DNA of 64,000 nt from Kofleriaceae bacterium (lineage in GTDB: Bacteria > Myxococcota_A > Polyangia > Haliangiales > Haliangiaceae): contig JACKDR010000001.1 in NCBI GenBank assembly GCA_020633495.1, positions 182,105 to 246,104 on the forward strand, written 5' to 3'. Each line of letters starts with the position of its first letter. Position 1 is the first letter of the stretch. Below are positions 27,049 through 39,616 of this stretch, in pieces. The position numbers and the translations under genes are program-made. The notes beneath the pieces are model-generated. The model was given only the letters and a program-made list of their open reading frames with translations, ran no database searches and had not been told where the DNA came from.

Positions 27049-27585
27049 ATGGCCCTGTCCGCGACGATGCGACGCTTCGAGATCGAGCTGGCCGACAGCG
27101 ATCGCGGCGTCTACGAGGCGCTCGACCTGCGGGTCGCGCAGCACCCGTCGGAGAGCGACCGCTACCTGATCGCGCGGGTCCTGGCCCGGGCGCTCGAGCA
27201 CGCCGAGGGCGTCGGCTTCAGCAAGGGCCTGTGCGTCGACGACGAGCCGGCGGTGTGGCAGCGCGATCTGCGCGGCGACCTGCAGGCGTGGATCGAGGTC
27301 GGCGCGCCGTCGACCGATCGCCTGCACAAGGCCGCCAAGACCTGCCCGCGGGTCGTCGTCTACGCGTGGAAGTCGCCCGACCAGCTGGCCCAGGCCATCG
27401 TCGACGCCGCGGTCCACCGCGCCGAGCACATCGCGATCCGCGGCCTCGACCCGGCGCTGCTCGACGCCGTCGCGGCCACCCTCGACCGCAACAACAAGTG
27501 GGCGCTGTCGGTCACCGGCGGCACGCTGTACCTGGAGATCGGCGGCAAGACGTTCGAGGGCGAGCTGCGCGCGATCGCCGGCTGA
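27049..27585 (+). CDS. YaeQ family protein
   Basis: A YaeQ-like N-terminus (MRRFEIELADSDRGVYE) is present and the size is ~180 aa. Confidence 0.75.
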   Translation: MALSATMRRFEIELADSDRGVYEALDLRVAQHPSESDRYLIARVLARALEHAEGVGFSKGLCVDDEPAVWQRDLRGDLQAWIEVGAPSTDRLHKAAKTCPRVVVYAWKSPDQLAQAIVDAAVHRAEHIAIRGLDPALLDAVAATLDRNNKWALSVTGGTLYLEIGGKTFEGELRAIAG

Positions 27586-27591
27586 CCCGCC

Positions 27592-27780
27592 CGCTCACCT
27601 CGAGCGTTCGACCGACGGCCGTCGGAGATTTGCCGCAAGACGAACCGGGTCAGGTCGCCTGGTCGACATGGTTCGCTCACCTCGAGCGCTCGACCGACGG
27701 CCGTCGGAGATTTGCGGCAAGACGAACCGGGTCAGGTCGCCTGGTCGACGTGGTTCGCTCACCTCGAGCGGAGCCCGAGC
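27592..27780. repeat. 82-bp tandem repeat, two full copies plus a partial third, each with nested palindromes
   Basis: Copies start at 27592, 27674 and 27756 and are >95% identical. Each unit contains the perfect palindrome CCGACGGCCGTCGG, the TTGC-N-GCAA palindrome and terminal GTCGACC/GGTCGAC complementarity. It lies in a convergent intergenic region. Confidence 0.85.
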
Positions 27781-28055
27781 GGCGAAGCCGCGAGGGCGCA
27801 GTCGAGAGGGCGTGGATCGGTGCGGTCTCGGCGGTGCACCGGTGCCCGCCCCCTCGACTCCGGGGTCGGTGCTGCGCACCTCCCCCTCCGCTCGGGGTGA
27901 GTGCTGTGAGGCCCAAACCCGCGGTCCGCCGATCGCTGCGCCACGCAAGATCAGCGGCCTGGCCCAGCTGTTCGTTAGGAGCGGAGCCCGAGCGGCGCAG
28001 CTGCGAGGGCGGAGGGGTGAGCGACGTCTGCAGGTCGAGCCGTCGTCGCCCGCGG

Positions 28056-28808
28056 CTAGTCCGCCGTGGCGACCGCGCACGTCGACGGCGGCGCCACCGC
28101 GGCGCCGTCGGCGGCGGCCGCGGCGGACAGCTCGAGGTCGAGCTCGAGGTTGTCGCTGCGCATCCCCACCGGGCCGGTCAGGCCCGCGGCGGTGCCGTCG
28201 AGCGTGCCCTGCCAGGCGACCTCGCCGTCGATCCACGCGACCAGGTCGTCGCCGACGATCTCGGCCTGCAGCGTGTGGGTCGAGCCCAGCGCGAAGCGCT
28301 TGACCCGGGCCGCCCGCCGCGGCGCGATCTTGACGTAGCCGCCGACGCCGCAGGCCGCGTTGTCGTGGGCGCCCGGGTTGTGCTTGACCGAGACCTCGAG
28401 CTGCGGCCGCGGCTCGAGCCGCCACATGACGTAGACCAGGTTGCATCCGTCGGCGGCGCGCAGCTTGAGGCCGACCTGGTGGCGGACGTCGCCGGAGGCC
28501 AGCGCGCGGGTCTTCAGGGTCGGGCCGAGGTAGGTGAAGCGCAGCGCGGCGCCGTCGCCCTCGGTGGCGGGCGCGACCGCGCGGAACGTCGGCTCGGTGA
28601 CGTGGACGACGTCGCCGTCGCCGTCGAGGTGGCCGTGGGTGACGCAGACGTCGGCGGCGGCCACCGGGGTCAACGCCAGCGACGGCGACCGGGGGGTCGG
28701 CTTGCCGGCGTCGTGGCCGCGCTCGCCGGCGGCGGACCGGTCGAACGCGCCGGCCTTGCACATGCCGACGACCGCGAGGATCGCGAGCGCGCCGTACTCG
28801 GGCTTCAC
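28056..28808 (-). CDS. Secreted/lipoprotein-like hypothetical protein (~250 aa)
   Basis: The C-terminal 250 aa of the track ORF is protein-like and has a hydrophobic N-terminus (ALAILAVVGMC). The GTG start overlaps the upstream stop (GTGA). Confidence 0.55.
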   Translation of the reverse strand: MKPEYGALAILAVVGMCKAGAFDRSAAGERGHDAGKPTPRSPSLALTPVAAADVCVTHGHLDGDGDVVHVTEPTFRAVAPATEGDGAALRFTYLGPTLKTRALASGDVRHQVGLKLRAADGCNLVYVMWRLEPRPQLEVSVKHNPGAHDNAACGVGGYVKIAPRRAARVKRFALGSTHTLQAEIVGDDLVAWIDGEVAWQGTLDGTAAGLTGPVGMRSDNLELDLELSAAAAADGAAVAPPSTCAVATAD

Positions 28809-31751: not shown

Positions 31752-33023
31752 ATGTCCACGACCGTCGTGGCGCACGGCACCGCTCTTGCTGAGGTTCCGT
31801 CGAACCAGCAGATGTCCGCCTTCCCCATCTACCTCTTCATCTTCATCGTCTTCCTGAACCGCTACGTGTTCGGGCTCTACCTGTCGCTGGTCCGCGGCAA
31901 GAAGTTCGACCAGAAGATCGAGGGGTACGAGCCGACGATCGGCGTGGTCGTGCCGCTCTACAACGAGGGCAAGTCGATCTACGACACGATCGTCAGCCTG
32001 GTGAAGCTCGAGTACCCGGCCGACAAGCTGACGATCACCGTGGTCGACGACTGCTCGACCGACGACAGCTACCAGTGGGCGCAGAAGGCGGCCGACGAGT
32101 TCCCCAACGTCACGGTGCTGCGCAACCCGTACAACATGGGCAAGCGCAAGGGCATCAACCACGCCGTGCGCCAGAGCACGGCCGAGATCATCGTCTCGGT
32201 CGACTCCGACGTCATCGTCTACCCGTCGGCGCTGCGCGAGCTGGTCGCGCGCTTCACCGGGCCCGAGGTCGCCGCGGTCGGCGGTCGCATCCACGTCTCC
32301 AACCCCAACGACAACTGGCTGACCAAGCTGCAGACGATCAAGTACTACTTCGGCCAGGAGCACCTCAAGAACCTGGAACGGTCGCTGCGCTCGGTGATGT
32401 GCCTGTCGGGGTGCCTGACCGCGTACCGCCGCCACGTCCTGATCGAGCTCGAGCCCGTCCTCGAGAACCGCAACCTGCTCGGCGTGCCCATCAAGTACGG
32501 CGAGGACCGGTTCCTGACCCGGCAGATCGTCAAGCGCGGCTACCGCACGGTCATGACGATGGACGCGATGTGCTTCACCAAGGCGCCGACCCAGCTCAAG
32601 GCGTACTTCAACCAGCAGCTGCGCTGGAAGCGCTCCAACATCGTCGACTTCATCGGCGGCATCGGCCACGCCTGGCGCCTGCACCCGCTCTTGTGCGTGC
32701 AGTACCTGTCGATGCTGATGCTGCTGTTCATCTACCCGTTCGTGATCATCAGCCACGTCCTCGACGGCTCGTTCTTCGACCTGGCGGTCTTCCACCTCGC
32801 GGTGATCGCGGCGTTCAGCCTGGTCTACTACTTCTCGCCGTCGACCCGTCGCCTGCCGCCGTGGCTGCGCGTCCACCCCGCCGCGTTCCTGCCGATGGCG
32901 GTGCTGATGCCGGTGGCCTACCTGACCCTGACCCCGCTGGGCATGTTCACCCTCGACACGTCGAGCTGGGAGACCCGCGGCCACGTCGCCGGCGTCGCGC
33001 CCGGCCCCGGAGCCGCGCCGTGA
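31752..33023 (+). CDS. Family 2 glycosyltransferase, processive synthase type (NodC/HasA/PgaC-like)
   Basis: The GT-A motifs DDCSTDDS and DSD and the QQLRWKRS (QxxRW) motif are present, flanked by N- and C-terminal TM helices. Confidence 0.85.
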   Translation: MSTTVVAHGTALAEVPSNQQMSAFPIYLFIFIVFLNRYVFGLYLSLVRGKKFDQKIEGYEPTIGVVVPLYNEGKSIYDTIVSLVKLEYPADKLTITVVDDCSTDDSYQWAQKAADEFPNVTVLRNPYNMGKRKGINHAVRQSTAEIIVSVDSDVIVYPSALRELVARFTGPEVAAVGGRIHVSNPNDNWLTKLQTIKYYFGQEHLKNLERSLRSVMCLSGCLTAYRRHVLIELEPVLENRNLLGVPIKYGEDRFLTRQIVKRGYRTVMTMDAMCFTKAPTQLKAYFNQQLRWKRSNIVDFIGGIGHAWRLHPLLCVQYLSMLMLLFIYPFVIISHVLDGSFFDLAVFHLAVIAAFSLVYYFSPSTRRLPPWLRVHPAAFLPMAVLMPVAYLTLTPLGMFTLDTSSWETRGHVAGVAPGPGAAP

Positions 33024-33763
33024 TCGTCGCCGCCCATCAGCCGTCGTACCTGCCCTGGCTGGGCTACCTCGACAAGATGCTGGCGGCCGACGTCTTTGTC
33101 GTGATGGACGACCTCCAGTACGAGGCCCAGAACTTCCAGAACCGCAACCGGCTCAAGCTCAACCAGGGCGCCGCGTGGGTCACGGTCCCGCTCGAGCGCG
33201 GCACCCAGCGCGATCGCATCCTCGACAAGCGCATCCACAACGGCGGCAACCCCAAGGAGCACTGGCAGCGCCGCACCTGGCTGACGATCAAGACCCACTA
33301 CGGCAAGGCCGCGCACTTCGATCGCTACGCGCCCGAGCTCGAGGAGCTGTTCACCCGGCGCTGGGACCGCCTCGTCGATCTCGACCAGCACGTCCTGACC
33401 CTGGCGCGGCGCTGGCTCGGTATCACCAAGCCGATCCTGCACGCGTCGTCGCTCGGCCTGGTCGGCGACAAGACCGACCGCATCATCGACCTGTGCCGCA
33501 AGGTCGGCGCCCGGGTCTACCTGTCGGGCAGCGGCGGCTCGACCGGCTACCTCGACGTCGACGCCCTGCACCGCGCCGGCATCAGCGTGCGCTGGCAGCG
33601 CTTCGATCACCCGGTCTACCCGCAGCGCTACCCGGCGCAGGGCTTCGTCCCCAACCTCGCGTTCCTCGATCTGATCCTCAACTGCGGCGCCGCAAGCGCC
33701 GCGATCCTGCGCGGTGGCGACCTGCAAAGTCGCGACCTGCCGCGGGCGGAGGCGATGCCGTGA
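33020..33763 (+). CDS. WbqC-like family protein
   Basis: It matches the WbqC-like N-terminal consensus (HQPSYLPWLGYLDKMLAADVFVVMDDLQYEAQNFQNRNRL). The GTG overlaps the GT2 stop (GTGA). Confidence 0.75.
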   Translation: MIVAAHQPSYLPWLGYLDKMLAADVFVVMDDLQYEAQNFQNRNRLKLNQGAAWVTVPLERGTQRDRILDKRIHNGGNPKEHWQRRTWLTIKTHYGKAAHFDRYAPELEELFTRRWDRLVDLDQHVLTLARRWLGITKPILHASSLGLVGDKTDRIIDLCRKVGARVYLSGSGGSTGYLDVDALHRAGISVRWQRFDHPVYPQRYPAQGFVPNLAFLDLILNCGAASAAILRGGDLQSRDLPRAEAMP

Positions 33764-34392
33764 ACCGCATCTTCGACGAAGAGAAGGGCGGCCGCGTGCT
33801 CGCCTTCGGCGCCCACCCCGACGATCTCGAGGTCGGCGCCGGGGGCCTCTTGGCGCGCCTGTCGAACGAGGGCGCCGACGTCACGATGTGCGTGGTGTCG
33901 ATCCCCAACCGCGGCGACGAGCGCGCCGCCGAGGCCCGCGCCGGCGCCGAGGTCATCGGCGCCGACCTGTTCATCCTCTACGAGGGCAAGCCGTGCCGGG
34001 TCGAGGACATCCCGATGCACGAGCTGGTCGGTCGCTTCGACCAGCTGGTCGGCGACCTCCGACCCGACCTGGTGATCACCCACTCGGGCCACGACCTGCA
34101 CTGGGACCACGGCCTGGTCAACCGCGCCACGGTGTCGGCGCTGCGCCGGACCCCGTGCGATCTGCTGTCGTTCCTGTCGAGCCCGGAGATGAACGCGCAG
34201 TCGCGCTCGTACGGCCAGTGCTTCGCCGACATCTCGACGACGATGGACACCAAGCTGGCCGCGATCTCGGCGCACAAGTCGCAGCTGCCCAAGCTCGACC
34301 TCGAGTCGAGCCGCGACCTGGCCCGCGCCATGGGCCGCATCAGCGGCGTCGCCTACGCCGAGGCCTACGAGGTCCTGCGCGTCCGGATCTGA
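33760..34392 (+). CDS. PIG-L/LmbE-family N-acetylglucosaminyl deacetylase
   Basis: It has an AHPDDLEVGAGG zinc-binding motif and HSGHDLHWDHG. The GTG overlaps the previous stop (GTGA). Confidence 0.85.
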   Translation: MNRIFDEEKGGRVLAFGAHPDDLEVGAGGLLARLSNEGADVTMCVVSIPNRGDERAAEARAGAEVIGADLFILYEGKPCRVEDIPMHELVGRFDQLVGDLRPDLVITHSGHDLHWDHGLVNRATVSALRRTPCDLLSFLSSPEMNAQSRSYGQCFADISTTMDTKLAAISAHKSQLPKLDLESSRDLARAMGRISGVAYAEAYEVLRVRI

Positions 34393-34615
34393 TCCCGTGC
34401 GCGTGCCCGTGCCCGTGCCCGATCCGGACTCTGGTTCTGTTCTGATCCCGTGCCCGTGCCCGATCCGGACTCTGGTTCTGTTCTGATCCCGTGCCCGTGC
34501 CCGTGCCCGTGCCCGTGCCCGATCCGGACTCTGGTTCTGTTCTGATCCCGTGCCCGTGCCCGTGCCCGTGCCTGTGCCCGTGCCCGTGCCCGTGCCCGTG
34601 CCCGATCCGGCTCCC
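34388..34615. repeat. Minisatellite array of four variable-length units, each ending in (CCCGTG)n
   Basis: Direct reading. Units share the core GATCCGGACTCTGGTTCTGTTCTGATCCCGTGCCC and carry 2-9 CCCGTG hexamers each. The array is intergenic between the deacetylase and the DMT transporter. Confidence 0.9.
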
Positions 34616-34685
34616 GCTTCCGGTCCACCTCCGCCCTCCCCTTCCCCGGTGACCTCCTGCCCGCCGCGGTGTATCGTCCGCGCCC

Positions 34686-35564
34686 TTGCCGTCCCCCGGT
34701 GAACTGGCCGCGCTCGGTACCGCCGGTGCCTGGACCTGCTCGTCGCTGGCGTTCGCCGCCGCTGCCGAGCGCATCGGCTCGCTGTCGCTCAACCTGATCC
34801 GGATCGGCATCGCGCTGATCTGGCTGACGGTGATCGCCACGATCACCCGCGGCCTGCCGCTGCCCACCGACGCCAGCGCTCACACCTGGCTGTACCTGAC
34901 CCTGTCGGGCGCGGTCGGGTTCGTCCTCGGCGACCTGTGCTTCTTCCGCGCGCTGATCGAGATCGGGCCGCGGCTGACCATGCTGATCCAGACCACGACG
35001 CCGATCTTCGCGGCGGCGATCAGCTGGGTCGCGCTGGGCGAGGGGCTGTCGCCGCGCGGCCTGATCGGCCTGGTCCTCGTCGTCGCCGGCGTCGCCTGGG
35101 CGGTGAGCGCGCGACGCGGCACCACCACGATGCGCCGCCCCGGCCGCGGCGTGCTGCTCGCGCTGGGCGGTGCCCTCGGCCAGGCCGGCGGCCTGATCCT
35201 CACCAAGCATGGCCTCGGCGACTACCCGCCGATCGCCGGCAACCAGATCCGCGCCCTGGCCGCGCTGGTCGGCTTCGCGATCGTCCTGACCGCGTCGCGG
35301 TGGTGGCCCCACTTCCGCCGCGGCGTCCGCGACGGCCGCGCCATGGCCTTCGCCGCCACCGGCGCGACCCTGGGCCCGTTCATCGGCGTGACGCTGTCGC
35401 TGTACGCGGTGTCGCACGCCAAGGCCGGCGTCGCCGCCGCGCTGATGTCGACGCCGCCGGTGATGATCCTGCCCTACGTGTGGTGGCGCGGCGAGCAGGT
35501 CGGCGCCGCCGGCGTCCTCGGCGCTCTGACCGCGGTCGCCGGCGTCGCGCTGCTGGTCACGTGA
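34686..35564 (+). CDS. EamA/DMT-family transporter
   Basis: Ten predicted TM helices and two EamA-like halves are present. The start codon is uncertain; the track begins at a TTG. Confidence 0.7.
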   Translation: MPSPGELAALGTAGAWTCSSLAFAAAAERIGSLSLNLIRIGIALIWLTVIATITRGLPLPTDASAHTWLYLTLSGAVGFVLGDLCFFRALIEIGPRLTMLIQTTTPIFAAAISWVALGEGLSPRGLIGLVLVVAGVAWAVSARRGTTTMRRPGRGVLLALGGALGQAGGLILTKHGLGDYPPIAGNQIRALAALVGFAIVLTASRWWPHFRRGVRDGRAMAFAATGATLGPFIGVTLSLYAVSHAKAGVAAALMSTPPVMILPYVWWRGEQVGAAGVLGALTAVAGVALLVT

Positions 35565-35576
35565 CCGCGCGCCGGC

Positions 35577-36488
35577 TCAAGGCCAGCGGACGCCGGTGAG
35601 GTCCTCGGACAGCGCCCACAGCCGGGCGGCCCGGGCGTCGTCGCGGGCCGCGCGCGACGGCGTCGCGACCTTGCAGCGCACGAAGTACTGGCCGGTGACG
35701 TCGGCGACCTCGGGCGCCGACGCCAGGTAGATCGACGTGCGCGCCCCCTTCGCGGGGGTGAGCAGGACCCGCTTGCCGATCCGCATGCCGACCCGGTACA
35801 GCCACGAGCCGTCGCGCCCGAACCCCGACGCGATCGCGCCCGGGTGCAGCGCGTTGGAGGTGACGCCGGTGCCGGCGAGCCGCCGCGCCGCCTCGCGGGC
35901 GAACCACAGGTTGCACAGCTTGGACGCGCCGTACGCGAACGACTCGCGGTAGCCGCGCTCGCCGTACGGCAGGTCGTCCCAGGTGAAGCGGGCGAACCGG
36001 TGGCCCAGCGACGACACCGTGATCAGCCGCGCCGGCGCCGACGCCACCAGCAGGTCGCGCAGCTCCGCCGACAGCAGGAACGCCGCCAGGTGGTTGACCG
36101 CGAACGTGCGCTCGAAGCCGTCGACGGTCAGCTCGCGGCGATCGTTGATCGCGCCGGCGTTGTTGAGCAGGACGTCGAGGCGGTCGAAGCGGTCGCGGAC
36201 CTCGGCGGCGGCGCGCCGGACCTCGGCGAGCGACGCCAGGTCGGCGACCACCCGCTCGAGCCTCGCCGCGGGCGCGGTGGCGAGGATCGACGCCGCCGCG
36301 GCGTCGGCGCGGGCCGGATCGCGCACCAGCATGACGACGCGGGCGCCGCGCGCCGCCAGCGCGCGCGCCGCCTCGAGGCCGATGCCCGAGCTGGCGCCGG
36401 TGACGAGGACGGTGCGGCCGTCCATCGTCGGGGGCGTGGGCGTCGTCGGGGCGTCGTCGGGCTCGGCCATGGCGGCGCACCGTAGCAC
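35577..36488 (-). CDS. Short-chain dehydrogenase/reductase (SDR), retinol-dehydrogenase-like
   Basis: The TGASSGIG cofactor motif and a YGASK catalytic motif are present. Confidence 0.85.
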   Translation of the reverse strand: MLRCAAMAEPDDAPTTPTPPTMDGRTVLVTGASSGIGLEAARALAARGARVVMLVRDPARADAAAASILATAPAARLERVVADLASLAEVRRAAAEVRDRFDRLDVLLNNAGAINDRRELTVDGFERTFAVNHLAAFLLSAELRDLLVASAPARLITVSSLGHRFARFTWDDLPYGERGYRESFAYGASKLCNLWFAREAARRLAGTGVTSNALHPGAIASGFGRDGSWLYRVGMRIGKRVLLTPAKGARTSIYLASAPEVADVTGQYFVRCKVATPSRAARDDARAARLWALSEDLTGVRWP

Positions 36489-36505
36489 GCGCTAGGCTCG
36501 GCCCG

Positions 36506-37597
36506 ATGACACCACGTCGAGGGCTCGCGGTGCTGCTGGGGATGATCGGGCTCGCCGGGTGCGGCGGCGCCGCGCCGCCGCCGCCCGCGGGCGTCGCGCG
36601 CCCCACCGCCGTCGATCTGTCGCACCCGACGCTGACCCTCGAGTACCTGGTGTGGTCGGGCGGCGTCGACGGCGACACCGTGTGGCTCGACGCCGACGGC
36701 CACGAGCGCGGCCGCGCCCACGGCGCCTGGGTGTCGCGCGGCGGTCGGCTGTGGCAGCTGCGGCTGCGGCAGGAGCGCTACCCGGCGTCGCCGTGTAACG
36801 CCGGCCCGACCGGCGCGCCGACGCCGCCCGGCGAGATCGTCGTCGACGTGCTCGAGCTGGTGGCACCGCCGGTCCCGGCCGCGGACACCCGGGGCGCCGG
36901 CCGTGGCGGCGGCGGCTACGGCGGCGATGGCTACGGCGGCGATGGCTATGGCCTCGAGGACGACGAGTACGACGGCTACGACGGCTACGACGGCTACGAC
37001 GGCTATGACGGCTACGGCAACGGCGAGGCCGTGCGCCAGCTGTCGTCGGGCGGCTACGGCGGCGGCCCCGGCGCGGTCCACACCGTGACGCTCCGCGGCC
37101 AGCTCGGCCGCTTCGTGTTCCTCGACGAGCGCACCGCCGGCACCGGCTGCGACGGCGTCACCCGCGCCGAGGTCACCGCGCACGCCTACGACCTGTCGAC
37201 CAGCAACTGGCTCGAGCCGCTGGTCCGCGACGACGACGAGGCGGCGCTGATCCGCACCGCGACGCCGCAGCTCGCCCGCCTCGCCGCCACCACCACCGCG
37301 CCCGACGCCTGGATCGCCGAGGCCCGGCCGCGCTGGCGCGACGGCGGGTTCGGCGTCGACGCGCTGGTGGTCGCCGCGTGCCCGGCCTGCGCCGCCGGCG
37401 AGTGGTCGTCGGGCACCGCGGCGATCTGGCTCGAGGCGCCCGCGGCGCCGCCGGCGATCGAGGAGGAGGCCGAGCTGCCCGAGCCGGTGCGCGCGTGGCT
37501 GTCGCGCGCCGCCGGGCCCACCGGCGTCAGCAGCGGCCTGCCGGATCGGAGCTGGTCGCGGCTGCTCGGCGGCGGCGGCGGCGACGTCGCGCGCTGA
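36506..37597 (+). CDS. Lipoprotein with a Gly/Tyr/Asp repeat region (GYGGD x2, DGY x5)
   Basis: It has a lipoprotein signal (LLGMIGLAGC). The repeats are encoded by 9-bp and 15-bp tandem DNA repeats at 36905-37020. Confidence 0.65.
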   Translation: MTPRRGLAVLLGMIGLAGCGGAAPPPPAGVARPTAVDLSHPTLTLEYLVWSGGVDGDTVWLDADGHERGRAHGAWVSRGGRLWQLRLRQERYPASPCNAGPTGAPTPPGEIVVDVLELVAPPVPAADTRGAGRGGGGYGGDGYGGDGYGLEDDEYDGYDGYDGYDGYDGYGNGEAVRQLSSGGYGGGPGAVHTVTLRGQLGRFVFLDERTAGTGCDGVTRAEVTAHAYDLSTSNWLEPLVRDDDEAALIRTATPQLARLAATTTAPDAWIAEARPRWRDGGFGVDALVVAACPACAAGEWSSGTAAIWLEAPAAPPAIEEEAELPEPVRAWLSRAAGPTGVSSGLPDRSWSRLLGGGGGDVAR

Positions 37598-37613
37598 GCG
37601 TGAGTCGCGCGGG

Positions 37614-37785
37614 AGCGGATCAAGAGACAGAGCCCGGATCGGGCACGGGCACGGGCACGGGCACGGGCACGGGCACGGGCACGGGCACGGGCACGGGCAC
37701 GGGCACGGGCACGGGCACGGGCACGGGCATGGGCATGGGCACGGATCAGAACCAGAGCGGATCGGGCGCGAGCACGGGCGGGCCT
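37614..37785. repeat. (GGGCAC)n array of about 17 hexamers; inverted copy of the 34388-34615 minisatellite
   Basis: The reverse complement shares GATCCG..CTCTGGTTCTG..GATCCGTGCCC with the left array. Its G-rich strand is (GGGNNN)n, a textbook G-quadruplex motif. Confidence 0.9.
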
Positions 37786-37798
37786 GGTACGATGGGGC

Positions 37799-39616
37799 AT
37801 GGGCGCCGACCCGGTCCCGGGGGACGTGACCGCCGCGGTGGCGTCGCCCACCTCGCGCTCGGGCGTCCGCGCGGCCTACCGCCGGGTCGTGCACGGCGTC
37901 ACCCTCGCCGACGACGCCGAGGTGGTCTACGAGCGCGAGCGCATGGCGCTCAACCGCCGCAACATCCGCGTCGTCACGCTCGCGACGCTGGCGCTCCACG
38001 CGATCTCGGTGGTGGTCTACGCGCGGCAGGCGGCCGACTGGACCGACGTGCCGCGCAGCTTCCACGCCACCGTCGCGTGGGTCCACCTGCTCGCGCTGCC
38101 GCTGGTCACGACCCTGGCGGCGCTGGTGTCGTGGGTCGAGCCGCGGCGGTGGCCGCCCGGCTGGCGGGCCTGGGCCACCGACCTGTACGCCTTCGCGTAC
38201 CTGATGATCGGCGCCGCGCTGTCGATCAACGCGCAGCGCCTCAACGGCAACGTCAACGTCTACACGATCGCCTCGCTGGCCGGCGCGATCGCGCTGCGCC
38301 AGCGCACCACCGCGGTCATCCTCGGCCAGGCCGCCGGCGTCACCGCGATGGTGATCGGCGTGCTGCAGGTGCAGCACGCGACCCCGCTGCGCATGGCGGC
38401 GCTGGCGCCGGTGCTGGCGGTCGCGGTGTTGACCATCGTCCTGGCCCGCGCGTCGGTGGCCGCGATGCGCGCCGAGATCGCCGCGCGCCTGACCATCGAG
38501 CGCCAGCGCGCCGAGCTGGCGACCAACCACGACGCGCTCGAGCGCCTCAACGGCGACCTCGAGCGCCGCGTCCAGGCCCAGGTCGCCGAGATCGTCGCCC
38601 GCGCCGGCGAGATCGATCGCCTCAACCACCACCTGCGGACCCAGGTCATCGACCGCTCGCGCCAGCTCGCCCACGCGCTCAAGGCGCTGGGCAAGGGCGA
38701 GGCCCTGCCCCTGGCGCCCGGCGTCACCCTCGACGGCCGCGTCGAGATCCGCGAGCAGATCGGCGTCGGCGCGATGGGCGAGGTCTACCGCGGCGCCGAC
38801 CGCATCCTCGCCCGCGACGTCGCGGTCAAGGTGCTACGCGCGGACAGCGGGGTGTCGACCGATCTGTGGGTGCGGTTCGCCGCCGAGGCCGAGGCCGCCG
38901 CCGCGATCCACCACCCCGCGGTGGTGCCGACGCTGCACGTCGGCATCGCCGACGACGGCCGCCTCTACCAGCTGCAGGAGCTCGCCGATGGCGTGCCCCT
39001 GAGCCGGCTGCTCGAGGACGGCGGACCGTGGGCGCCGGGCGCCGCGGCGCGGGTCGGCGCCGGCCTGGCCGAGGCGCTGGCCGCGGCCCACGCCGCCGGC
39101 ATCGTCCACCGCGACGTCAAGCCCGGCAACGTCATGGTCGGGACCACGGCGCCGGCGGTGCGCCTGCTCGATTTCGGCGTGTCCAAGGTGCTCGGCAGCG
39201 ACGCCGACGCCGGCATCGTCGTCGGCACGCCGGCGTACATGGCGCCGGAGCAGATGACCGCGTCGACCGCGGTCGACGCCGCCGCCGACGTCTACGCCAC
39301 CGGCGTCGTGCTCCACGAGCTGATCGCCGGGACCCGACCGTTCGTCGGCGGCACCGCGACGCTGCTCGATCCCGCCGGCCGCGCCGCGCCGCCGCGGCTG
39401 TCGGCGCAGGAGGCGCCGCCGGCGCTGGCCGCGCTGATCCAGCGCTGCCTGGCGCCGGACCCCGCGCGCGCGGCCGACCGCGGCCGCGCTGGCCGCCGAG
39501 CTGACCGCGATCGCCGACGCCGCCGGCGCGCCGCCGCCCACGCCCTGCCGCGGCCACGATCGGCGACGCGCGACGGCAGCGGCGCCACGGTGCGGCTGCG
39601 CGCGCCCGACGCGTGA
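37799..39616 (+). CDS. Membrane-anchored Ser/Thr protein kinase (N-terminal polytopic domain, coiled coil, C-terminal kinase)
   Basis: The Hanks kinase motifs HRDVKPGN, DFG and GTPAYMAPE are present, with 5-6 predicted TM helices N-terminal. The last ~45 aa are Arg-rich, and an alternative +1 frame reads protein-like, so a C-terminal frameshift is possible. Confidence 0.75.
   Translation: MGADPVPGDVTAAVASPTSRSGVRAAYRRVVHGVTLADDAEVVYERERMALNRRNIRVVTLATLALHAISVVVYARQAADWTDVPRSFHATVAWVHLLALPLVTTLAALVSWVEPRRWPPGWRAWATDLYAFAYLMIGAALSINAQRLNGNVNVYTIASLAGAIALRQRTTAVILGQAAGVTAMVIGVLQVQHATPLRMAALAPVLAVAVLTIVLARASVAAMRAEIAARLTIERQRAELATNHDALERLNGDLERRVQAQVAEIVARAGEIDRLNHHLRTQVIDRSRQLAHALKALGKGEALPLAPGVTLDGRVEIREQIGVGAMGEVYRGADRILARDVAVKVLRADSGVSTDLWVRFAAEAEAAAAIHHPAVVPTLHVGIADDGRLYQLQELADGVPLSRLLEDGGPWAPGAAARVGAGLAEALAAAHAAGIVHRDVKPGNVMVGTTAPAVRLLDFGVSKVLGSDADAGIVVGTPAYMAPEQMTASTAVDAAADVYATGVVLHELIAGTRPFVGGTATLLDPAGRAAPPRLSAQEAPPALAALIQRCLAPDPARAADRGRAGRRADRDRRRRRRAAAHALPRPRSATRDGSGATVRLRAPDA

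Follow-up and report, generated by a model that had tools for sequence, protein, structure and literature searches.

A (GGGCAC)n array upstream of a protein kinase gene in a Kofleriaceae genome is most likely a fast-mutating intergenic microsatellite

The window analyzed here is a 64-kb stretch of a Kofleriaceae metagenome-assembled genome (MAG; Myxococcota, Polyangia, Haliangiales) that has a G+C content of 74% and is approximately 14% intergenic. Between a lipoprotein-like gene and a gene encoding a membrane Ser/Thr protein kinase, it carries an array of 17 GGGCAC-type hexamers, here called the right array; a related repeat, the left composite repeat, lies approximately 3 kb away. Both repeats differ in unit number between two near-identical assemblies of the locus. 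The right array is most likely to be a fast-mutating microsatellite, and a regulatory role of the arrays is unproven. In its full form, the reading that we favor with moderate confidence is that of a hypermutable intergenic hexanucleotide microsatellite, or variable-number tandem repeat (VNTR), that is driven by slippage and has a neutral or weak effect on its neighbors.

Two (GGGCAC)n repeat loci

The right array occupies positions 37641..37742 of the plus strand and is composed, in order, of 14 GGGCAC units, two GGGCAT units, and one GGGCAC unit. It contains 17 intact G3 tracts separated by loops of 3 nucleotides (nt). Tandem Repeats Finder (TRF) reports 17.5 copies with 97% matches, which places the array among the three strongest tandem repeats of the window. 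The dodecamer GGGCACGGGCAC, with at most one mismatch allowed, occurs 32 times in the window compared with 1.98 ± 1.31 times in shuffled sequences, and 31 of the 32 occurrences fall within the two repeat loci. An earlier, sequence-only reading of this DNA had proposed a 17-unit repeat with its G-rich strand on the plus strand, a left-hand counterpart with its G-rich strand on the minus strand, and a transporter gene and a kinase gene downstream of them. We find exactly 17 hexamers at 37641-37742, the two strands as proposed, and the expected genes: an EamA/DMT transporter gene at 34686-35564 and a Pkinase gene at 37799-39616.

That reading had also described the left locus as a single array. 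The repeat is present, but it is a composite of four (GGGCAC)n blocks of 4, 2, 5, and 9 units at 34394..34610 (G-rich strand minus), bounded by GATC and split by three identical 27-nt spacers. Read along the minus strand, its organization is CCGGATC-(GGGCAC)9-GG-spacer-(GGGCAC)5-GG-spacer-(GGGCAC)2-GG-spacer-(GGGCAC)4-GGGATC, and its blocks include the variant units GCGCAC and AGGCAC. The spacer copies, GATCCGGACTCTGGTTCTGTTCTGATC on the plus strand and GATCAGAACAGAACCAGAGTCCGGATC on the minus strand, lie at 34421..34447, 34462..34488, and 34521..34547 and are 100% identical to one another. TRF detects additional higher-order periods of 41 and 59 nt in this composite. The 27-nt spacer is absent from every other locus that we fetched.

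Repeat length differs between near-identical assemblies

A second assembly, GCA_020431345.1 (a "Myxococcales bacterium" MAG), contains the same locus and spans both repeats end to end. On its contig JAGQIL010001141.1, the right array has 18 units (15 + 2 + 1) compared with 17 in our window, while the flanks are identical at 179 of 179 and 1383 of 1383 bases. On contig JAGQIL010000918.1, the left composite repeat differs only in the block adjacent to the PIG-L deacetylase gene, which has 2 units compared with 4 here; the 2884 nt of upstream flank contain 4 substitutions, and the 1704 nt of downstream flank contain none. Altogether, two repeat-length events stand against four substitutions in approximately 6.1 kb of flanks that are approximately 99.9% identical. 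This pattern is what would be expected of a hypermutable microsatellite, and the length variability that had been proposed from the letters of one genome is seen directly in the assemblies.

For three sequencing runs, Logan contigs are perfect matches to the window and terminate inside both arrays, which shows the repeats to be real and a cause of breaks in short-read assemblies. An assembly artefact was rejected as an explanation of the repeats, since both of them are found in independent assemblies.

The right array is non-coding

The third-codon-position GC signal ends at 37597, the stop codon of the lipoprotein-like gene, and returns at 37799, the ATG of the kinase gene. Because this signal is missing from 37598-37798, we regard the right array as non-coding. 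A coding repeat, which would specify a Gly-Thr, His-Gly, or Ala-Arg tract, was rejected on the same ground, and it is also ruled out by the flanking genes, which are in other frames, and by the kinase start annotated by NCBI, which is at 37799. Long spurious open reading frames (ORFs) traverse the array on both strands.

On its 5' side, the array is preceded by a diverged, spacer-like flank, GGATCAAGAGACAGAGCCCGGATC, at 37617..37640 of the plus strand, the last 11 nt of which are GAGCCCGGATC. The 3' flank at 37743..37781 of the plus strand consists of a diverged spacer, GGATCAGAACCAGAGCGGATC, followed by the degenerate units GGGCGC GAGCAC GGGCGG.

The two loci form a mirror-image pair

Given that diverged copies of the left spacer flank the right array, the left and right loci are diverged copies of one composite repeat, arranged as mirror images on either side of a 3-kb block that holds three genes. 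In both loci, it is the 5' end of the G-rich strand that points inwards. The inverted arms, approximately 3 kb apart, are up to 92 nt long if 83% identity is accepted and 64 nt long at 98%. Such an arrangement raises the possibility of a recombinational origin or role, in which the EamA, short-chain dehydrogenase (SDR), and lipoprotein-like genes would form a 3.4-kb cassette, mobile or invertible, with the composites as its terminal inverted repeats, or in which the composites would be the two halves of one ancestral array split by an inversion that had a breakpoint inside it. Under the inversion model, the ancestral array would have stood between convergent genes, the favored context of this class of arrays (see below). 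However, the genes between the arms include no transposase or recombinase, the outer ends show no visible target-site duplication, and the 3-kb block has the same orientation in both assemblies, on both sides. The right spacers have diverged from the left ones, so any such event was not recent. Despite the inverted arms, we therefore consider a recombinational origin or role very unlikely.

G-quadruplex and hairpin potential

By the canonical definition of a G-quadruplex (G4) motif, at least four G3+ tracts with loops of 1-7 nt, the window contains 14 non-overlapping motifs on its two strands, where a first-order Markov model would give 7.2 ± 2.5. The two repeat loci account for seven of the 14, four in the right array and three in the left composite repeat, and the right array is the window's longest G-tract chain (17 tracts). 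The earlier statement that the array satisfies the G4 pattern many times over thus agrees with our counts. For the right array, a G4-aware RNA energy model assigns -52.5 kcal/mol to four tandem three-tetrad G4s compared with -33.8 kcal/mol to the best hairpin. In principle, and as far as this model goes, the array can fold into G-quadruplexes.

The accompanying description of the array as a strong G4-forming tract is an overstatement, as its G4Hunter score straddles 1.2. The mean score of the right array is 1.18; individual 25-nt windows score between 1.08 and 1.32, and 1.2 is reached in 51% of them. The score is only 1.18 because each loop contains two cytosines; per unit, GGGCAC scores 1.17 compared with 1.5 for the telomeric GGGTTA. 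The accuracy of G4Hunter falls below a score of 1.2, and cytosines are penalized as guanine-pairing (PMC6943126). Furthermore, a hairpin competes with the G4. When folded as DNA, the G-rich strand is predicted to form an imperfect hairpin of G-C pairs and G.A mismatches at -36.7 kcal/mol (z = -7.7), because GNGCNC is its own reverse complement. The C-rich strand yields no comparable fold (-8.1 kcal/mol, z = 0.43). Plain RNA folds of the two whole intergenic regions were no better than those of shuffled sequences (z = 0.01 and -1.19).

These properties bear on the proposal that the arrays are G4-forming, length-variable regulators of the downstream promoters, with the G4 on the non-template strand at the kinase gene and on the template strand at the EamA gene, and with unit number tuning transcription. 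The canonical motifs, the 17-tract chain, the preference of the G4-aware model, the share of 25-nt windows at or above 1.2 (about half), and the observed length polymorphism all speak for it, whereas the mean score below the usual threshold (PMC6943126), the strong competing hairpin, and the location of the duplex in a genome of 74% GC speak against it. We consider such a role quite unlikely, also in view of where the arrays lie.

Position of the arrays relative to putative promoters and transcripts

The hexamer TAnnnT is found at 40 sites on both strands of the 64-kb window, and 26 of the 40 sites fall in the approximately 14% of the window that is intergenic. Fifteen sites lie 3-8 nt upstream of the start codons of ORFs that have at least 90 codons and a third-position GC content of at least 0.95. 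Eight of these are on the plus strand (5979, 7070, 11995, 27037, 34672, 36493, 37788, and 51464) and seven on the minus strand (58582, 50218, 44605, 36484, 13448, 11922, and 5249), and several carry a TGn extension. The clustering of this rare hexamer 3-8 nt before start codons is a pointer to widespread leaderless transcription, to the extent that mRNAs without a leader may be the norm in this Kofleriaceae genome.

The pattern extends to each of the four genes that surround the repeats. An extended -10-like element, TGGTACGAT, at 37785..37793 of the plus strand ends 5 nt before the kinase ATG and holds the only TAnnnT of the 201-nt intergenic region, and a -10-like TATCGT at 34672..34677 of the plus strand, 8 nt before the EamA TTG, is the only TAnnnT of its 293-nt intergenic region. 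TACGGT lies 8 nt before the SDR ATG, and TAGGCT lies 7 nt before the ATG of the lipoprotein-like gene. A distant homologue of the kinase gene has TATGAT 7 nt upstream of its ATG. We infer that TGGTACGAT and TATCGT are the putative leaderless promoters of the kinase and EamA genes, respectively.

The 3' end of the right array is 45 nt upstream of the putative kinase -10 element, and the left composite repeat ends about 68 nt upstream of that of EamA. If these promoters are correct, the right array would extend from approximately -58 to -159 relative to the kinase start site, and the left composite repeat from approximately -81 to -291 relative to that of EamA. With putative leaderless promoters immediately beside the start codons, both arrays would be located on the 5' side of the core promoter and would not be included in the transcript that starts there. 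Any transcription of the arrays would then come from the preceding genes alone, as a 3' trailer of their mRNAs; the stop codons of these genes are 43 nt (right) and 2 nt (left) away. The earlier placement of the arrays in promoter regions is thus apt insofar as they lie upstream of putative leaderless promoters, but they lie equally just downstream of the preceding stop codons.

For a G4 regulator, these positions cut both ways. The arrays end upstream of the only -10-like hexamers of their regions, and the 3' flank of the right array (37743..37781), with its degenerate tail, would span the expected -35 region of the putative kinase promoter. Since one 6-bp unit corresponds to approximately 0.57 of a helical turn, unit number could also matter for factors bound upstream. 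On the other hand, the arrays would not be part of the transcripts of the putative leaderless promoters.

No sigma-70 promoter with both hexamers and no intrinsic terminator of relevance was found at the locus. A fit of TGGTACGATGGGGCA to the sigma-54 -24/-12 pattern, made by eye, was rejected as its spacing is off by 1 nt. A search of 33500-38500 against Rfam at E <= 1 returned no family in either intergenic region, and the nrdJ match that it gave inside the SDR gene was dismissed as a chance hit. The stretch at 34614-34665, which runs from the left composite repeat to the EamA -10-like hexamer and overlaps the expected EamA -35 region, is C-rich on the plus strand; its G4Hunter score of -1.38 is greater in magnitude than that of either array.

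Related arrays in other genomes

A scan for (GGGCAC)4, using one genome per species, returned at least 118 loci. All counts below are counts among the matches listed. Myxococcota contribute 53 of the 118 loci and Actinomycetota 32 of the 118, by our own grouping. Gene context was assigned with a caller based on third-position GC, which is adaptive and was checked on three annotated loci but is crude. Among the 58 Myxococcota arrays listed, the caller scored 9 as coding and left 19 without an assignment; those that are outside genes or unassigned have 4-8 perfect units. Actinomycetota arrays are mostly coding (14 of 28 called). The arrays within genes, which are found in Actinomycetota (for example, the His-rich tracts of the L056 type, L041, and L079) and in a few Myxococcota, probably encode His-Gly, Gly-Thr, or similar low-complexity tracts. 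A literature search for such arrays, or for intergenic repeats in myxobacteria or Myxococcota, found nothing.

Where both neighboring genes could be called, the array-bearing intergenic regions of Myxococcota comprise 13 tandem, 11 convergent, and 7 divergent regions, compared with 103 tandem, 32 convergent, and 43 divergent among the other intergenic regions of the same loci. Convergent regions are thus enriched: they make up 11 of 31 (35%), compared with 18% when the other regions are counted (p = 0.016) and 15% when they are weighted by length (p = 0.005). Divergent regions, which are rich in promoters, are not enriched (7 of 31 compared with a 24% baseline). This distribution argues further against a G4 regulator of downstream promoters, since no promoter is expected between convergent genes. 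Some Myxococcota loci carry inverted pairs of arrays approximately 90-220 nt apart (L027, L035, L036, and L076), which could fold into long hairpins, and these lie between convergent genes where the neighbors are callable (L027, L035, and L036). Inverted pairs in Planctomycetota are tight, perfect hairpins of the form (GTGCCC)4-5 N10-11 (GGGCAC)4-5, as at L075:7037-7094, L025, L106, and L118, a Gemmataceae MAG.

Myxococcota arrays also have a polar boundary. GATC directly abuts the 5' end of the G-rich strand in 12 of 56 Myxococcota arrays but in only 4 of 326 isolated GGGCAC hexamers, and it occurs within 12 nt on the 5' side in 16 of 55 arrays compared with a baseline of 7.1% (p = 8e-7). There is no enrichment of GATC 3' of Myxococcota arrays, and among Actinomycetota GATC abuts 0 of 32 arrays and lies within 12 nt of 1 of 32. 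Examples of a 5' GATC in Myxococcota include L055:817-880, L045, L070, and L103. At L055, a Polyangia MAG, the element GAGCCCGGATC(GGGCAC)7GGCGGATC fills a convergent gap, and the 5' flank of this 7-unit array is the same 11-nt GAGCCCGGATC that precedes the right array in our window.

The context and the boundary together bring to mind repetitive extragenic palindromic (REP) sequences. REPs have been reported chiefly from the 3' side of genes, where the flanking ORFs are unidirectional or convergent, and one of their ends bears a conserved tag, GTAG or CGTC (PMC3733652); they reach more than 100 copies per genome and have an associated transposase, the REP-associated tyrosine transposase (RAYT) (PMC2817692). 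A REP-like 3'-end element would use its hairpin, or an RNA G4, to terminate or insulate transcription of the upstream units or to protect their mRNA 3' ends, with length variation as a side effect. Consistent with this idea, both of our repeats begin within 43 nt of an upstream stop codon, array-bearing regions are enriched for convergent genes, inverted pairs and tight hairpins recur, and a polar 5' GATC followed by a quasi-palindrome resembles the architecture of a REP. Nevertheless, we regard this explanation as rather unlikely: the RNA folds of the two whole intergenic regions are no better than those of shuffled sequences, the sense strand has no T-tract terminator, divergent regions are not depleted, only two loci are present in 64 kb where REPs typically exceed 100 copies per genome (PMC2817692), the tag is GATC, not one of the two REP tags, and is found on only about a quarter of arrays, and the context counts come from a crude gene caller and cover the listed matches. 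A broader form of the idea, that GATC-(GGGCAC)n is a Myxococcota-wide, previously undescribed class of polar hairpin- or G4-forming intergenic elements that are REP-like, insulate or terminate, and tune read-through into leaderless genes by gain and loss of units, seems to us unlikely as well.

The polar, non-random GATC, which directly abuts 12 of 56 Myxococcota arrays but only 4 of 326 isolated hexamers and none of 32 Actinomycetota arrays, could instead be part of the recognition context of a DNA-binding protein. The array would then offer many copies of one binding site in a row to a protein such as a nucleoid-associated protein or a transcription factor, an idea to which the sharing of GAGCCCGGATC with an array in an unrelated Polyangia MAG lends some color. 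However, we identified no candidate protein and no known motif, and the arrays occur in every genomic context with a unit number that varies freely from 2 to 18. This possibility appears very unlikely.

The case for a microsatellite

We return to the microsatellite reading. In the mechanism that we propose, whole units would be gained and lost by slipped-strand mispairing. As GNGCNC is self-complementary, a displaced G-rich strand could fold into a long hairpin of G-C pairs and G.A mismatches, which would favor slippage, and the G3N3 spacing would permit three-tetrad G-quadruplexes that may aid it. The array would be one arm of a mirror-image composite pair built from GATC-bounded (GGGCAC)n blocks and a 21-27-nt spacer, situated in the gap that separates the stop codon of the upstream gene from the putative leaderless promoter of the downstream gene. 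Changes in its length would most likely be neutral or only weakly felt by the adjoining genes. Viewed across genomes, the right array may be a long, young member of a group whose other members, intergenic (GGGCAC)4-8 arrays, are short and common in Myxococcota.

Several points weigh against this interpretation. The differences in unit number rest on two metagenome assemblies, whose repeat counts can be wrong. At 17-18 units, the right array exceeds in length every other pure array of the 127 listed, the maximum elsewhere being 12, which may reflect selection. The convergent enrichment and the 5' GATC of Myxococcota arrays suggest that there is more to the class than mutational noise. The near-neutrality of length changes is an argument from absence, and this reading does not account for the mirror-image arrangement around three genes.

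If the arrays only mutate fast, they would provide strain-typing markers for uncultured Kofleriaceae and would represent a hazard for short-read assembly. If instead a G4 or hairpin is functional, the locus would offer a natural allelic series, in which one repeat is present in opposite orientations at a distance of 3 kb and in variants of different copy number, each orientation upstream of a putative leaderless promoter. The polar GATC boundary and the convergent bias hint at an undescribed class of repeats in Myxococcota, a phylum whose intergenic repeats appear to have been little studied.

Comparison with known repeat systems

Simple sequence repeat (SSR) contingency loci are exemplified by the TAAA tract upstream of Neisseria meningitidis nadA and the TA tract in Haemophilus influenzae hif. 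Like these, the right array is a perfect tandem repeat of a short unit upstream of a putative promoter, its copy number differs between near-identical genomes (as assembled), and slippage is the presumed cause. It differs in being a GC-rich hexamer in a free-living myxobacterium of 74% GC, and in lying neither in an ORF nor between the -35 and -10 elements, the placements that define a classical contingency locus, but 45 nt upstream of the putative -10 and thus beyond the expected -35 region. Its relatives in other genomes, too, are found mostly in places where a promoter would not be expected. Mycobacterial interspersed repetitive unit (MIRU)-VNTR loci are likewise intergenic tandem repeats of variable copy number in a high-GC genome, and the 41- and 59-nt periods of the left composite repeat add to the resemblance. 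MIRU units, however, are approximately 40-100 bp and lack G3N3 periodicity, whereas the primary unit here is 6 nt.

A REP is defined as a 20-40-nt imperfect palindrome that is able to form a stem-loop. Compared with REPs, REP doublets forming hairpins (REPINs), and bacterial interspersed mosaic elements (BIMEs), the arrays are similarly extragenic, with a predicted hairpin of the G-rich DNA strand, a 5' tetranucleotide, inverted pairs, and, among the matches listed, a convergent bias; they are set apart by a tag that most arrays lack, by a microsatellite stem of variable length, and by their low number in the window. A transposable element with terminal inverted repeats would share the inverted arms, but the arms here enclose EamA, SDR, and lipoprotein-like genes and no transposase, and there is no outer direct repeat.

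G4 motifs in bacterial promoters have been described in Mycobacterium tuberculosis (PMC5515968) and in genome surveys (PMC6539912). The right array shares with them its G3 tracts, its short loops, its proximity to a putative transcription start, and its high-GC genome. Unlike those unique four-tract motifs, it is a 17-tract microsatellite that is polymorphic in length, has a G4Hunter score of only 1.18, and has a hairpin as an alternative fold. Its G3N3 hexamer architecture is also that of vertebrate telomeric (GGGTTA)n, although with CAC loops, and it resembles the C9orf72 (GGGGCC)n repeat in that either a hairpin or a G4 is possible and its length is unstable. It differs from both in being bacterial and intergenic, in having tens of units at most, and in having no telomerase or disease context.

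Conservation around the kinase gene

The kinase ORF starting at 37799 is 100% identical to NCBI protein MCB9558951.1 (605 aa), and MCB9570491.1 is a relative that is 96% identical. Three loci of kinase homologues at approximately 51-57% identity have neither an array upstream nor synteny with our window, and a metagenome scan for orthologous loci found a single homologue, at 49%. Because these three distant homologue loci lack the array and the synteny, the association of array and kinase looks young and lineage-specific, and the 100% identity of the three left spacers can also be counted in favor of a young array. The absence of an array upstream of the three homologues argues, in addition, against a G4 regulator of the kinase promoter. 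Upstream of the distant kinase homologues lies a gene for a DUF6748 protein, to which the lipoprotein-like protein is unrelated.

Gene neighborhood and other repeats

The gene preceding the left composite repeat encodes a PIG-L family deacetylase (33760..34392, plus strand), and its stop codon is 2 nt from the repeat. It belongs to a sugar-modification cluster at 31803-34392, made up of a family-2 glycosyltransferase, WbqC, and the PIG-L deacetylase according to the annotation of a near-identical contig (L125). The EamA/DMT transporter gene (34686..35564, plus strand) follows the left repeat; with its TTG start at 34686 its product has 292 aa, and the same gene call is made in the NCBI and Logan contigs. 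The SDR gene (35577..36470, minus strand) lies in the middle of the 3-kb block that separates the two repeats. It is followed by the lipoprotein-like gene (36506..37597, plus strand), which has the third-position GC signal of a real gene and ends 43 nt upstream of the right array, and then, beyond the array, by the membrane Ser/Thr protein kinase gene (37799..39616, plus strand), which encodes a Pkinase domain.

The lipoprotein-like gene (36506-37597) has no Pfam match. A homologue search with its protein returned none, a result that is uninformative since low-complexity repeats swamp the word matching; at 36905-37016 the gene contains in-frame coding repeats, (GGDGY)x3 + (DGY)x6.

Two further tandem repeats lie elsewhere in the window. 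The first, at 27592-27770, is an 82-nt repeat of 2.2 copies with 96% matches inside a 482-nt gap between convergent genes (27577-28058). The second, at 1444-1485, consists of 4.2 perfect copies of the decamer CCCGACGACG and lies in the intergenic region between divergent genes.

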